From IMG/VR virus record IMGVR_UViG_2654587569_000010: 43,250 nt of DNA; one strand, 5' to 3'. The notes beneath the pieces are model-generated. The model made no database searches, was not told where the DNA came from, and saw only the letters and a list, made by a program, of their open reading frames with translations. Positions within the stretch are counted from its first letter, which is position 1, and each line of letters opens with the position of its first letter. Origin of the DNA: a virus. Taxonomy: Duplodnaviria > Heunggongvirae > Uroviricota > Caudoviricetes. Of this stretch, positions 1 through 23,572 are shown piece by piece. The position numbers were made by a program, and so were the translations under genes.

Positions 1-1158
1 ATGCTCACCGTTAAGCAGATTGAAGCAGCAAAGCCGAAAGAAAAACCATACCGCCTACTCGATAGTAATGGCCTGTACCTTTATGTCCCTGTGTCAGGGA
101 AAAAGGTATGGCAGCTTCGCTACAAGATTGACGGTAAGGAGAAAATCCTGACCGTAGGAAAATATCCGCTAATGACTTTGCAGGAGGCAAGAGATAAAGC
201 ATGGACCGCGAGGAAAGACATCTCGGTTGGCATCGATCCGGTAAAAGCGAAAAAGGCTTCGTCTAACAACAATTCCTTTAGTGCGATTTACAAGGAATGG
301 TACGAGCACAAGAAGCAAGTCTGGTCAGTAGGCTATGCAACTGAACTTGCAAAAATGTTTGATGACGACATTTTACCTATCATCGGCGGCCTTGAAATTC
401 AGGATATTGAGCCGATGCAACTGCTGGAAGTAATCCGCAGATTTGAAGATCGCGGTGCAATGGAGCGAGCCAACAAAGCCCGCAGAAGATGCGGCGAGGT
501 TTTCCGTTACGCTATTGTCACTGGTAGGGCTAAATATAACCCGGCACCTGACCTTGCTGACGCCATGAAGGGATACCGCAAGAAGAACTTCCCGTTTCTC
601 CCAGCAGACCAGATCCCTGCATTCAACAAAGCACTGGCAACATTTTCAGGAAGCATCATATCGCTCATTGCGACCAAAGTTTTACGCTACACAGCCCTAA
701 GAACGAAAGAGCTTCGCTCCATGCAATGGAAGAACGTCGATTTTGAAAACAGGATTATCACTATCGACGCCAGTGTGATGAAGGGCCGCAAGATTCATGT
801 TGTTCCTATGTCAGACCAGGTGGTTGAACTTCTCACTACGCTAAGCTCCATCACTAAACCAGTATCAGAGTTTGTTTTTGCCGGGCGCAACGATAAGAAG
901 AAGCCAATCTGCGAGAACGCGGTGCTACTTGTGATCAAACAAATCGGCTATGAGGGTCTGGAAAGCGGTCACGGATTCAGGCATGAATTCAGCACGATTA
1001 TGAACGAGCACGAATGGCCTGCTGATGCTATTGAAGTGCAACTGGCACATGCCAACGGCGGATCTGTGCGCGGGATTTACAACCATGCTCAGTATCTCGA
1101 TAAGCGCAGAGAAATGATGCAATGGTGGACGGACTGGCTTGATGAAAAGGTGGAGTGA
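1..1158 (+). CDS. intS: tyrosine integrase, P4/IntS type
   Basis: 385 aa; N-terminus MLTVKQIEAAKPKEKPYRL (P4-type DUF4102-like), C-terminal HGFRH...LAH...GIYNHAQY catalytic region; recalled as near-identical to E. coli K-12 IntS. Confidence 0.85.
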   Translation: MLTVKQIEAAKPKEKPYRLLDSNGLYLYVPVSGKKVWQLRYKIDGKEKILTVGKYPLMTLQEARDKAWTARKDISVGIDPVKAKKASSNNNSFSAIYKEWYEHKKQVWSVGYATELAKMFDDDILPIIGGLEIQDIEPMQLLEVIRRFEDRGAMERANKARRRCGEVFRYAIVTGRAKYNPAPDLADAMKGYRKKNFPFLPADQIPAFNKALATFSGSIISLIATKVLRYTALRTKELRSMQWKNVDFENRIITIDASVMKGRKIHVVPMSDQVVELLTTLSSITKPVSEFVFAGRNDKKKPICENAVLLVIKQIGYEGLESGHGFRHEFSTIMNEHEWPADAIEVQLAHANGGSVRGIYNHAQYLDKRREMMQWWTDWLDEKVE

Positions 1159-1236: not shown

Positions 1237-3399
1237 TTATTCACATAAAGATATTGATGCCAATATAAACATTGCAAGTTCGTCATATCTTATACCATAA
1301 CTTTCACAAAAGATATCTATATTTCCAGTCATGTGTTCGCGATGCGTTTTATCGTGACACCAAAACCCATACTTACTAGGATCAAGTCCGTGCTTCCTCA
1401 TTATATTACCAACAGTTTGAGCTCCAACACCAAAATGCCACCTAGCACCATCAAATCCCTTTACCTCAACAGAATCCAGCATCTTAAACTTTTTAATATT
1501 ATCTTTTATTTCTAGTGCAGCTTTTTTTTCAGCAACATCAATGTCTGTTAGTTTTGTTTTCAACATTTCATTTGATGTATTTATCATTCCTGTAGTTGCA
1601 TATATTGTTTTATATCTCGCATCCGGCCCACCAATATCAAAAGCATTATCAATTTGTGGTGTAATTTTCCCATAATGAAAGAATAATTCATGCTCACTAT
1701 TACCTATAGCTACAGTATTCTGAGCGGCAATTACCCCACTACCGATAGCTACTGCGTTACTTCCGGTTGATTTTGTATTATCTCCGAGAAGGACGCAGTT
1801 TGTCACATCTGTAGCCTGCTCTGACACGTTACCAGAATTAGAACCTAAAAATACATTGAAAGATCCAGCCGTTACTTTAAACCCTGCATCGAATCCAATA
1901 CCAACATTATCAGATCCTGATGCAGAATATAGCGCCTCGTAACCTATAGCTGTATTATTATTACCTAACGCGTTGAAACCCGACTTAGCCCCTACCGCAA
2001 CACAATACTGGATAGACACCCCCGTAGGAAAACTGGAATTACCGCCACGTAACGCATATTCACCAAAAGCGGTGTTCTCATTACCAGCACTGTTGTGATA
2101 CAAGGCCTGCACACCTGCCGCAGTATTCCCAAATCCTGTTTTGTTATACCTGTTAGTATCATTACCAATACCAGTATTACCGTAGCCTGTTGTGTTTGCA
2201 CATAACGCAAAAACCCCAACCGCTACGTTATCAGAACCAGATACGTTAGCTCTTAGAGAATCAGCACCGTATGCACAATTGTTTTTACCAGTCTTATTGT
2301 TTTCCATAGACTGAATCCCAGACGCGGTATTTGCGTATCCTGTAGTGTTTGAGTGCAAACTCTTCCACCCATATGCGGTATTGTTAGCTCCTACGTTTCC
2401 ACCGCCTAATGAGTCTTTTCCAGCGGAAGTATTAGTATCATTGTTTCCGCTAACATTAAAAATAACGCTTCCTGATTTAACGATGCTGCCACTTCCTGTG
2501 TTTATTACTGATGGATTGGAAGGAATGAAAAATGACCATGAGTCATTTACTGTATGTCCAGTGGTTGAAGAAAAGTTTATCTTCAATCCACTTACGAAAA
2601 AATCCACCCCACCTGCAAGTATTACGATTGGTTGCTGAGATACACTGTCATCGATTGGGTTGTACACGTCTATCGTGTCACGCCATGTAACTCCATTATC
2701 TGTACTGAATTCAAGCTTATCAGGATTTGAAGCTTCTTTTATTCTTACAATTGCATTTAGATCTTGCTGTCCATTGTATATTCCTGACACGGTCATGTCG
2801 TTAACACCAGAGCCAGAATATTTAGTCTGGTAATTAATCACTACTATGCCAGGCCCCCAATATCTCTTATTTAAGTTAATATTATTTACATTATAAATAC
2901 CATCAGGAATGTATATGTCATTGAATTCCGATATCTCTGCATCGTTAAATGCCTGCGTATTGTTTGTTAATCCATCACCAATAGCACCAAAAAAAGTAAT
3001 AGGCTTCGAAACACCACCTATCAATCCTGCTCCACCAGATGATTCAAGCTCCAACCTTAATTGATCCGGCTCATACTTCAACACATTAGGAAAATAGAAC
3101 TGCTGTGCACCATATGCGTCATAAACAGCCATAGAATGGCCTTGCACAGTTACGAACTTTGCAATCTGCCCGTTATATACCGGGTATCCAGCAGCGTTAA
3201 TGATGATTGGTTGCGAAACAGGAACGTGAGAGCCGTCTTCGTTCTCCACATAAACCTGAATCTGGTTTTCAGGATTTACCGGGTCAGTGTCAATTTTACC
3301 GATATAAATTTTGCCATTGGCTACGGCTTTAAAAGAACGCGCCATAGTGAAGAGTTGCGAAGGCATCGATACGATCACATTGGCTGTAATGTCTGTCAT
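1237..3399 (-). CDS. tailspike: P22 gp9-like head-binding N-terminus, Gly/Asn/Thr/Ala-rich repeat middle, C-terminal intramolecular chaperone (S74-like) domain
   Basis: N-terminal 115 aa ([11 protein letters not shown]...[19 protein letters not shown]...[12 protein letters not shown]) matches P22 gp9; C-terminus ...[22 protein letters not shown]... resembles autocleaving chaperone of endosialidase-type fibers. Confidence 0.8.
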
Positions 3400-3531: not shown

Positions 3532-3789
3532 ATGATGTACAGCAAATACGATGAGGCGCAGTTCCACTTGAGGCTTACGCACGAGTTGCACGCTAAGATT
3601 AAGCAGCGTGCAAAAATGAATAACAGGTCTATCAATTCCGAAATTGTGGCTACGATGGAAGAATCACTCTCCAAACCATCACCTGTAAGCGGGTATCGTG
3701 ATGAAGAAGAGAGGCTGGCCTCATTAATCTCGGAACGAGTAAAAGAAGTTGCGGCTGATATCCTTAGAAAAGAAAAAACCCGCGATTAA
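3532..3789 (+). CDS. mnt: Mnt-like ribbon-helix-helix repressor
   Basis: Only the last 85 aa of track ORF 3061..3789 are credible; QFHLRL...NNRSINSEIV...SLSKPSPVSGYRDEEERLA parallels P22 Mnt; GGTGAGG SD 5 nt before ATG at 3532. Confidence 0.7.
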   Translation: MMYSKYDEAQFHLRLTHELHAKIKQRAKMNNRSINSEIVATMEESLSKPSPVSGYRDEEERLASLISERVKEVAADILRKEKTRD

Positions 3790-3803
3790 GCGGGTTTAGT
3801 TGG

Positions 3804-5541: not shown

Positions 5542-5715
5542 TTACTGGGCATTAGCTCTTTCCTCTCTCAGGCTTTTAGCCAGTCGCTGCACAATCGCAG
5601 AGTTGATAGAAATTCCATCCATTTCAGCAACACGTCTAATCTCCTCCTTCATTCGCGCTGGCAAACGAAGCTGGAAACTTTGACTTTTACGACCTGTGTA
5701 AAGCACATCTTTCAT
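5542..5715 (-). CDS. arc: Arc-like ribbon-helix-helix repressor
   Basis: SFQLRLPARMKEEIRRVAEMDGISINSAIVQRL is an Arc/Mnt RHH fold; GGGAGGA SD upstream of ATG at 5715. Confidence 0.65.
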   Translation of the reverse strand: MKDVLYTGRKSQSFQLRLPARMKEEIRRVAEMDGISINSAIVQRLAKSLREERANAQ

Positions 5716-5742
5716 AAGTAATCCTCCCACAATGATGCCAAC

Positions 5743-5826: not shown

Positions 5827-6210
5827 ATGAGCAAGTTCCCTAGTCATGAAATGGATAGGTTCAATATCAGGCTTCCGGCAGGAATGCGGGATGCTATAGC
5901 CTTAAGAGCAAAGGAAAACGGCAGATCAATGAATACAGAACTAGTGTTTATCATTGATGATGCATTGAAGTCTCCGGTGCCTGCTGAGGTTGATAACTCC
6001 AGGATTATGAAGATTTACTCAAACCTCTCCGGGAACAGGCCATCAAACAAAGAAGAGTTTGAGCGGTGGGAGAATGAGCTAGTCAAAGCAATTTTCTACT
6101 TACTAGATAGCATCAGTTCTCATTCGCAAATGTATCAAGCTCTCAGGAGCTTAAGGCAAGATGCATATAAAAATGTTTTTGGCGATGATGCTGAAGACAT
6201 CCAGTTTTGA
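5827..6210 (+). CDS. RHH-domain regulator in the Mnt position (divergent from arc-ant)
   Basis: N-terminus FNIRLPAGMRDAIALRAKENGRSMNTELV is an Arc/Mnt-type RHH; 127 aa with extra C-terminal domain. Confidence 0.6.
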   Translation: MSKFPSHEMDRFNIRLPAGMRDAIALRAKENGRSMNTELVFIIDDALKSPVPAEVDNSRIMKIYSNLSGNRPSNKEEFERWENELVKAIFYLLDSISSHSQMYQALRSLRQDAYKNVFGDDAEDIQF

Positions 6211-23416: not shown

Positions 23417-23492
23417 TGGTGCTGGTTAACGGACTTGAACCGCTACCCATTCGCTTACAAGGCGACTGCTCTACCATTGGAGCTAAACCAGC
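23417..23492 (-). tRNA. tRNA-Thr (anticodon UGU), CCA encoded
   Basis: 76-nt cloverleaf by hand: acceptor GCTGGTT/AACCAGC, D-arm GCTC-CAATGGTA-GAGC, anticodon loop CTTGTAA, T-arm AGCGG-TTCAAGT-CCGTT; one mismatch in anticodon stem. Confidence 0.6.
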
Positions 23493-23497
23493 ATATT

Positions 23498-23572
23498 TGG
23501 CGGGACAGCGTGGACTCGAACCACGATAAGAAGGTTAACAGCCTTCCGTAATGACCTTTATACGACTGACCC
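23498..23572 (-). tRNA. tRNA-Asn-like (anticodon GUU), CCA encoded, atypical D-arm
   Basis: Anticodon stem GAAGG/CCTTC with loop CTGTTAA, T-arm CGTGG-TTCGAGT-CCACG, acceptor with one T-T mismatch; 5 nt upstream of tRNA-Thr. Confidence 0.5.

Follow-up and report, generated by a model that had tools for sequence, protein, structure and literature searches.

The closest known architecture to the protein described here is that of the GH58 endosialidase tailspikes of phages CUS-3 and K1F, with an N-terminal anchor, a catalytic head, a beta stalk and a C-terminal S74 chaperone, in this order. A further precedent, for a fibre that binds O-antigen without being an enzyme and that matures through S74 autocleavage, is pb1 of phage T5 (PMC4690869). 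The exchange of receptor-binding domains has been documented among Lederberg-, Nouzilly-, Gamaleya-, Kaguna- and other viruses (PMC10408124). Modular tailspike exchange with an S74 chaperone is already well established, and our finding extends this understanding without changing it. It concerns a tailspike gene in a 43,250-nucleotide (nt) stretch of DNA, IMG/VR record IMGVR_UViG_2654587569_000010 (the whole stretch is called the window below), which is a P22-like prophage. An earlier annotation made from the letters of the window only, here called the sequence-only reading, had placed the gene at exactly the same coordinates (1237..3399); the open reading frame lies on the minus strand and encodes 720 amino acid residues (aa).

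The gene probably encodes a tail protein of a P22-like (Lederbergvirus-type) temperate Escherichia coli phage, built by recombination, that is trimeric and self-processing and binds glycans in the manner of an adhesin. Domain composition, homologies, an intact catalytic dyad, a mosaic history and purifying selection form the observed part of this reading. The identical protein is already deposited in RefSeq (WP_050485978.1, 'phage tailspike protein'), where it falls into a 90%-identity cluster of 47 proteins of E. coli and Escherichia albertii, nearly all listed at 720-721 aa. Full-length gene copies were rare, being found in 2 of 5426 complete E. coli genomes; two complete chromosomes, from chicken isolates of E. 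coli, carry the gene at 99% identity.

Likeness to P22 was confined to the N-terminal domain. The Pfam model Head_binding (PF09008) matched aa 1-113 over all of its 113 positions (E=1.8e-66, 221.9 bits, cut-off 24). By sequence match in the PDB, Sf6 gp14 (7sg7) covered aa 1-118 (E=3.7e-64), and the P22 gp9 chains (2xc1, 8tvr) spanned aa 2-119. No similarity to P22 gp9 was found past the head-binding domain, the gp9 chains matching within aa 1-119 only. This agrees with the sequence-only reading, which had limited the resemblance to the first 115 aa. P22 gp9, Sf6 gp14 and HK620 gp9 share with the window protein the head-binding domain, the gene position and a short beta-helix cap motif. At the DNA level, gene nt 1-345 were 88-95% identical to N7, CUS-3, HK620 and Sf6, and epsilon34 was also similar there. 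CUS-3, which has the same P22-type head-binding domain, reached 93.6% over these nucleotides and has an annotated 'boundary sequence'. Nucleotide similarity ended at gene nt 335-345 for P22-like phages and at nt 368 at most for E. coli prophages. DNA identity to the unrelated lytic phages ST4 and P817 began at gene nt 366 and ran to nt ~1700 at 85%.

The switch in identity falls in a linker whose motif (Table 1) is common to an unrelated P22-type prophage tailspike (strain ET151) and to the TSP1/gp66-type anchors of ST4/P817. Its invariant residues are L114, R115, L118, G123, L126, G129 and K132. The linker motif would be an obvious recombination joint between the anchor and a foreign module, and it may be a general crossover site for the exchange of receptor modules between temperate and lytic phages. 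Conserved DNA motifs have been given for lytic genera only (PMC10408124). The motif occurs in P22-type head-binding anchors as well as in those of TSP1/gp66 type, and a joint in the linker of two anchor families would be directly usable for the design of chimeric tailspikes.

From the linker onward (aa 114-132 and beyond), sequence comparison marks the protein as a foreign module, which also stands behind other anchors in ST4 and P817. Over aa 113-720 it was 76-77% identical to the fibre proteins of these two phages (UUB18130.1 and UAV84693.1, respectively), and over aa 125-608 84-85%. The three proteins share the receptor module, the domain order and the S74 ending, and the ST4 and P817 proteins appear to be the closest relatives by descent. 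More divergent were the cap (66-68% identity), the stalk end (52-53%) and S74 (42-46%), with an extra S74 insertion in the window protein. A search of 50,697 cultured phage records recovered the complete module from ST4 and P817 only. The anchors fronting it vary (PF09008, PF18668 and others): those of P817/ST4 are of TSP1/gp66 type (PF18668) or G7C type, whereas the window protein has the P22 head-binding domain. P817 is a lytic phage of the Drexlerviridae, genus Nouzillyvirus, and ST4 is a lytic, G7C-like Gamaleyavirus with a 72-kb genome (PMC9404725). The P817 protein was assigned to the orphan subtype 'X49', for which specificity and serogroup were given as unknown and horizontal transfer had not been detected (PMC10408124). 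The window gene appears to be the X49 transfer missing from that study. The mobility of X49 would then extend beyond lytic siphoviruses and podoviruses to P22-like temperate prophages in E. albertii and avian-pathogenic E. coli.

The alignments indicate that the module is itself a mosaic of a cap remnant, an Asp-box module, a stalk of 17-residue repeats, a stalk end and S74. Identity to the relative P0004 across these five parts was 66, 99, 94-96, 100 and 46%, and to the relative P0006 47, 44, 90-91, 60 and 44%. The Asp-box domain was 95-99% identical in the closest metagenomic relatives and 97% identical to ST4 at the nucleotide level. For selection, the proportions of nonsynonymous and synonymous differences (pN and pS) were used instead of dN/dS; synonymous sites were saturated in the cap. 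Against ST4, pS was 0.10 in aa 201-300, 0.80 in the cap and 0.89 in the stalk end, and pN/pS was 0.19 over aa 122-608, with 0.08-0.33 in sub-regions. Because pS was uneven (0.10-0.89) and pN/pS low throughout, the sub-modules were probably exchanged separately, all under purifying selection. The GC content was 32-38% in the cap, the Asp-box domain, the stalk end and S74, versus 46.8% for the window.

Table 1 Coordinates of the tailspike gene, its predicted domains and neighbouring features in the window.
Feature	Position	Strand	Basis or remark
Complete tailspike / receptor-binding protein gene	1237..3399	-	720 codons + stop, ATG start (open reading frame list)
P22/Sf6-type head-binding (tail-hub anchor) domain, aa 1-113	3061..3399	-	Pfam PF09008
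Linker and apparent recombination joint, aa 114-132	3004..3060	-	Motif LRxxLxxxGGxxL(I/V)xG; identity switch at gene nt 345-368
Cap remnant, aa 133-191	2827..3003	-	Start of a pectate-lyase-like right-handed beta-helix: N-terminal cap, first rung(s)
Putative autonomous Asp-box beta module, aa 192-300	2500..2826	-	Signature GxGxND...SxDxGxTW...TGHTxxDxW
Asp-box STDNGVTW, aa 232-239	2683-2706	-	Exact match
Head-to-repeat transition, aa 301-322	2434..2499	-	100% identical in P0002-P0005; pLDDT 55-65
17-residue repeats, aa 323-570	1690..2433	-	NTAxGxxALxxNTTGxx; ~15 turns, predicted YadA-like beta-roll
Distal stalk end, aa 571-608	1576..1689	-	Homology with the end of the endosialidase stalk; C-terminal tip of the predicted mature protein
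Peptidase_S74 intramolecular chaperone, aa 609-720	1240..1575	-	Motif T-S-N-E-M-L-K
Predicted nucleophile Ser609	1573-1575	-	
Predicted general base Lys614	1558-1560	-	
Prophage integrase (IntS-type)	1..1158	+	Convergent with the tailspike gene (open reading frame list)
Terminator-like hairpin	3776..3797	-	Upstream of the tailspike gene, closes the ant-like immI region; 8-bp stem with 5 GC pairs, then a T-run

The head behind the linker is small. Its first part, the cap, retains ~60 aa homologous to the region where pectate-lyase-fold glycanases and depolymerase tailspikes begin, and the Sf6 tailspike matched the cap profile at positions 4-48. A long (>10-rung) right-handed parallel beta-helix with an active site was not found in the window protein. 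Structure prediction gave no canonical P22 beta-helix, and S74 was present. In agreement with the sequence-only reading, the protein is not a P22-type endorhamnosidase, and a receptor specificity differing from that of P22 is a reasonable expectation.

The second part of the head, around a single Asp-box, was compared with 1.84 billion representatives in an exhaustive HMMER search. This gave 310 cluster representatives at E<=1e-3, many of them matching only at query positions ~68-175, that is, the ~100-residue Asp-box stretch. The module was often in tandem, with up to 13-14 copies per protein in large uncharacterised proteins (e.g. P0126, P0130 and P0164), and had the family consensus GxGxND…PDTFxWSxDGGxTW…(variable ~25 aa)…GVxVTFxxTTGHTxGDxWxF. 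It appears to be an autonomous domain family of ~85-100 aa, widespread and so far unannotated. Pfam and NCBIfam had no model for it and the PDB-profile search gave no family; the matches were all sub-threshold, to BNR (faint, E 0.05-0.1), Teneurin_ABD and DUF models. Sialidase and BNR matches were restricted to the Asp-box motif (E>=0.004). In the AlphaFold model, the module had a confidence (predicted local distance difference test, pLDDT) of ~75-94. Its presence in tandem arrays across many unrelated proteins suggests a binding module.

The repeats that follow exceeded chance expectation. The motif N[TNSC][ATSGC]xG occurred 9 times versus 0.8 expected (maximum of 5 in 2000 shuffles), and self-identity at a lag of 17 over aa 320-600 was 0.212 versus 0.083 +/- 0.016, a value reached by 0 of 2000 shuffles. 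From aa 323 to 458 the repeats were in perfect register, whereas those of aa 459-570 were irregular and interrupted by insertions. The sequence-only reading had described the centre of the protein as built from short Gly/Asn/Thr/Ala repeats. These are real, but they occupy only aa 323-570 and have a unit of 17 residues; about 40% of the centre (aa 114-322) is non-repetitive and consists of the linker, the cap remnant and the Asp-box module. Its comparison of the repeats with adhesin heads fared better. The AlphaFold model of aa 113-720 had a mean pLDDT of 78.7, with >85 at aa ~383-562 and >90 at aa ~403-562, and folded the repeat region as a beta-roll with one DSSP strand per repeat. In Foldseek, this region resembled adhesin heads (BoaA, E=3e-3), and the predicted structure has the YadA-like head fold of trimeric autotransporter adhesins (YadA, UspA1, BpaC, BoaA, EibD and CbpF), a left-handed parallel beta-roll. 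The window protein had no match to Pfam YadA_head (PF05658) at E<=1; its relatives P0011 and P0016 passed this model with 28.9 and 29.2 bits (cut-off 25).

A YadA membrane anchor or coiled-coil stalk was not found by Pfam, which detected only Head_binding, End_tail_spike and S74. Unlike in trimeric autotransporters, trimerisation of this phage-borne protein would presumably depend on the cleavable S74 domain. The protein is not a trimeric autotransporter but would work like an adhesin head. Very distant phages also have the 17-residue repeats: the repeat region by itself matched, with 30-38% identity, tail proteins of phages of Pelagibacter, Roseobacter and Methylophilales as well as gp2.52 ('tail spike') of SPO1-like Bacillus phages. 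The beta-roll stalk appears to be a building block in wide use among phages.

At its distal end, the stalk resembles that of the endosialidases. Positions 91-160 (of 160) of PF12219 matched aa 538-608 (E=3.9e-7), so that the last ~70 stalk residues are homologous to those of CUS-3/K1F, and the stalk end aligned with the pre-cleavage segments of 3gw6, 4uw8 and 7y5s. It had a pLDDT of 52-74 in the monomer model, which is consistent with a segment intertwined in the trimer. The name of PF12219 ('Catalytic domain of bacteriophage endosialidase') was rejected as a sign of catalysis, since the match was confined to the final 70 positions of the model, which correspond to the stalk end. A six-bladed sialidase beta-propeller with Asp-boxes was not found, the PF12219 match covering the stalk end only. 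Unlike the endosialidases, the window protein thus has no sialidase beta-propeller and a head of only ~190 aa with one Asp-box, and its stalk is a predicted beta-roll of 17-residue repeats versus their triple beta-helix/prism.

The C-terminus matched Pfam Peptidase_S74 (PF13884) at aa 609-672 by a narrow margin (23.4 bits, gathering cut-off 22). In phmmer against the PDB, the chaperone-bearing fibres 7y5s, 6eu4, 4uw8 and 3gw6 matched aa ~572-716 (best E=8e-19), T5 pb1 (4uw8) at E=2e-13. The fold search of the model returned the chaperones of T5 pb1, K1F endoNF and GA-1. The segment S609-N-E-M-L-K614 aligned with pb1 residue 1264 (Ala in the S1264A construct 4uw8) and its Lys. Ser1264 of pb1 is the documented autoproteolysis residue (PMC4690869). 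The S609 and K614 positions also aligned with the corresponding Ala and Lys of the 3gw6 endoNF construct, and the homologous K1F chaperone shares the S-N-x-x-x-K dyad. The intramolecular chaperone postulated in the sequence-only reading is thus supported by Pfam, PDB and fold matches with the Ser-Lys dyad in place, and we infer that autocleavage would occur at Ser609. In other respects pb1 differs: it is a siphovirus side fibre of 1396 aa, its anchor is not the same, and its receptor-binding 'bullet' domain has a different fold. An extra segment at aa ~683-700 of the window S74 was absent from the ST4 and P817 chaperones, and this S74 was closer to the chaperone of the metagenomic relative P0008 (65%) than to those of the nearest module relatives (42-46%); both observations suggest a separate exchange of the chaperone.

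A mechanism can be proposed from the established behaviour of S74 chaperones (K1F endoNF, T5 pb1) and of P22-type tailspikes. The C-terminal chaperone would align three chains and nucleate the folding of the beta-stalk from its distal end. Ser609, activated by Lys614, would then cut just ahead of itself and free the 112-residue chaperone, leaving a kinetically stable mature trimer of 608-residue chains, which the anchor (aa 1-113) would plug into the tail hub. Each virion would carry six such trimers, each with a small head (cap remnant and Asp-box) and a YadA-like beta-roll stalk of ~15 turns. Head and beta-roll would bind a host surface polysaccharide (O-antigen or capsule), in all probability as a lectin or adhesin that leaves it uncleaved, and binding would place the tail needle for DNA ejection. 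Specificity would most likely reside in the recently exchanged core (the Asp-box module and the proximal repeats) and in the irregular distal repeats.

The non-enzymatic role is the weakest step of this reading. It was favoured because searches with Pfam, PHROGs, NCBIfam, PDB profiles and folds revealed no catalytic domain, because the largest domain is adhesin-like, and because the Asp-box module behaves like a repeatable binding unit. Several points speak against our reading as a whole. Structurally, it is based on AlphaFold2 monomer models of a protein taken as an obligate trimer, with low confidence at aa 293-382 (pLDDT 53-65) and aa 563-612. The canonical YadA period is 14 residues, versus 17 here, and the self-identity test gave no signal at a lag of 14. 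The receptor could not be read from the lysogens: assignment by serogroup, following the logic of PMC10408124, was abandoned when O2/O50 and O119 clusters gave no consistent serogroup. Moreover, the characterised Lederbergvirus tailspikes known to us (P22, Sf6, HK620 and CUS-3) are enzymes (PMC11990801), among which a pure binder would be an exception. Finally, N200, D201, D251 and H282 were invariant polar residues in the fibre subfamily and could form an active site.

The last two points lead to an alternative that we consider unlikely, though a serious one, namely a true enzymatic tailspike. Here the head, perhaps with contributions from adjacent subunits, would provide a novel kind of glycanase or esterase site that cleaves or deacetylates O-antigen or capsule, and the beta-roll would be a mere stalk. 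The homology of the cap to the start of pectate-lyase-fold glycanases and depolymerase tailspikes fits this alternative, as does the endosialidase precedent of a catalytic head in the same domain order. ST4 has two adjacent tail-fibre genes and carries the module in the second, a slot that in phage G7C holds an esterase tailspike. However, the beta-helix is cut to ~60 residues, no profile or fold search gave a catalytic domain, and the best fold matches of the largest part were non-enzymatic adhesins. The case for the invariant residues as a tailspike active site was also weakened: D201, S232, G281, H282 and W288 were kept across the whole Asp-box family, including arrays of 13 copies, which points to a fold or ligand-binding signature.

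According to a second, rather improbable alternative, the repeats do not build three separate YadA-like beta-rolls; the three chains would instead be intertwined over the repeats in a single triple-stranded beta-helix or prism, like that of T4 gp5 or the endosialidase stalk, and the adhesin likeness is an artefact of single-chain modelling. S74 chaperones are best known for folding triple beta-helices, and the matched 3gw6 construct includes part of the endosialidase stalk. The PF12219 homology at aa 538-608, the one strand per repeat and the low confidence at aa 323-382 and 563-612 would also fit. Against it stand the relatives above the YadA_head threshold and the single-chain pLDDT of >90 at aa ~403-562, which would be unusual for a three-chain fold; intertwining is most likely limited to aa ~571-608. 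It is very improbable that the prophage is defective and the gene a decaying or non-functional remnant, a chimera with no present function: full-length copies are indeed few (2 of 5426) and the lysogens differ in O-antigen type, so that the phage may fail to reinfect its own host, but the 720-codon frame and the dyad are intact, the 47-member cluster spans E. coli and E. albertii at near-constant length, pN/pS is 0.19 and the window holds a full set of P22-like virion genes.

If the adhesin-type reading is correct, the window protein might be the first non-enzymatic receptor-binding protein of a P22-like phage (Lederbergvirus), with a lectin-like Asp-box module on a YadA-type beta-roll, matured by S74. 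We propose this tentatively, as a possibility somewhat short of probable. No direct description of YadA-like receptor-binding proteins with S74 in phages emerged from the literature searched, which is weak evidence given its incomplete coverage. P22-type podoviruses could then reach the outer membrane without depolymerising O-antigen or capsule, the adhesin-head architecture would be common to phages and bacterial trimeric autotransporters, and the Asp-box module would be an exchangeable specificity cassette. Tailspike modules decide which strains a phage, an engineered phage or a tailocin can attack, and this one would add a compact receptor module, not a beta-helix, whose sub-parts are exchanged separately. 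Four features of this locus are worth keeping: a P22-like virion with a receptor module of adhesin type, a joint in a linker common to two anchor families, a family of Asp-box modules that lacks annotation and, in the lysogens, a discordance of serogroups.

This discordance was seen in two lysogens. APEC O2-211 (NZ_CP006834.2, 3232115-3250365) carries wzx/wzy of the O2/O50 family, and GPEC60-33-648 (NZ_CM142764.1, 4893562-4914969), with a 99%-identical tailspike, those of the O119 family. APEC O2-211 has been reported as serogroup O2 and sequence type ST117 (PMC6256689). The GndA and Ugd proteins flanking the O-antigen cluster were identical in both strains. Different O clusters between identical flanks suggest that a single lineage had its O-antigen replaced once it was lysogenic. 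ISAs1 remnants and truncated acetyltransferase pseudogenes are also present in the O2 cluster. Pipelines in which a prophage tailspike predicts the host serogroup call for caution, as the same tailspike occurs in O2/O50 and O119 strains. The host range of ST4 was uninformative as to the receptor, this phage having two fibre genes and having been studied on Shiga toxin-producing E. coli of O157, O103 and other serogroups (PMC9404725). For P817, no paper was found in the literature covered, which was incomplete.

Around the tailspike gene, the window follows the P22 late-region layout, with antirepressors (ant/immI region) and then, at the end of the late region, the tailspike gene adjoining int. 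Upstream on the same strand lie genes for two antirepressors, three DNA-transfer/ejection proteins and an Hc3 (gp10-like) tail hub protein, and likewise those for coat, portal and large terminase (TerL), which complete the virion gene set. In APEC O2-211, the order tailspike, intS, tRNA-Arg, yfdC matches the arrangement in the window. A promoter scan around the tailspike gene gave 7 sites versus 9.7 +/- 3.6 in shuffled sequence, and thus no excess. An Arc-like ribbon-helix-helix gene (~3532-3789, plus strand; Pfam Arc, E=5.9e-15), with a GAGG ribosome-binding site before its ATG at 3532, is divergent from the tailspike start codon (3399). It is one of three Arc-family genes in the immI-like region, the other two lying at 5542-5730 (minus strand) and 5827-6210 (plus strand). 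Two adjacent tRNA genes, tRNA-Thr (TGT) at 23417-23492 and tRNA-Asn (GTT) at 23498-23572, both on the minus strand, were found inside the prophage.

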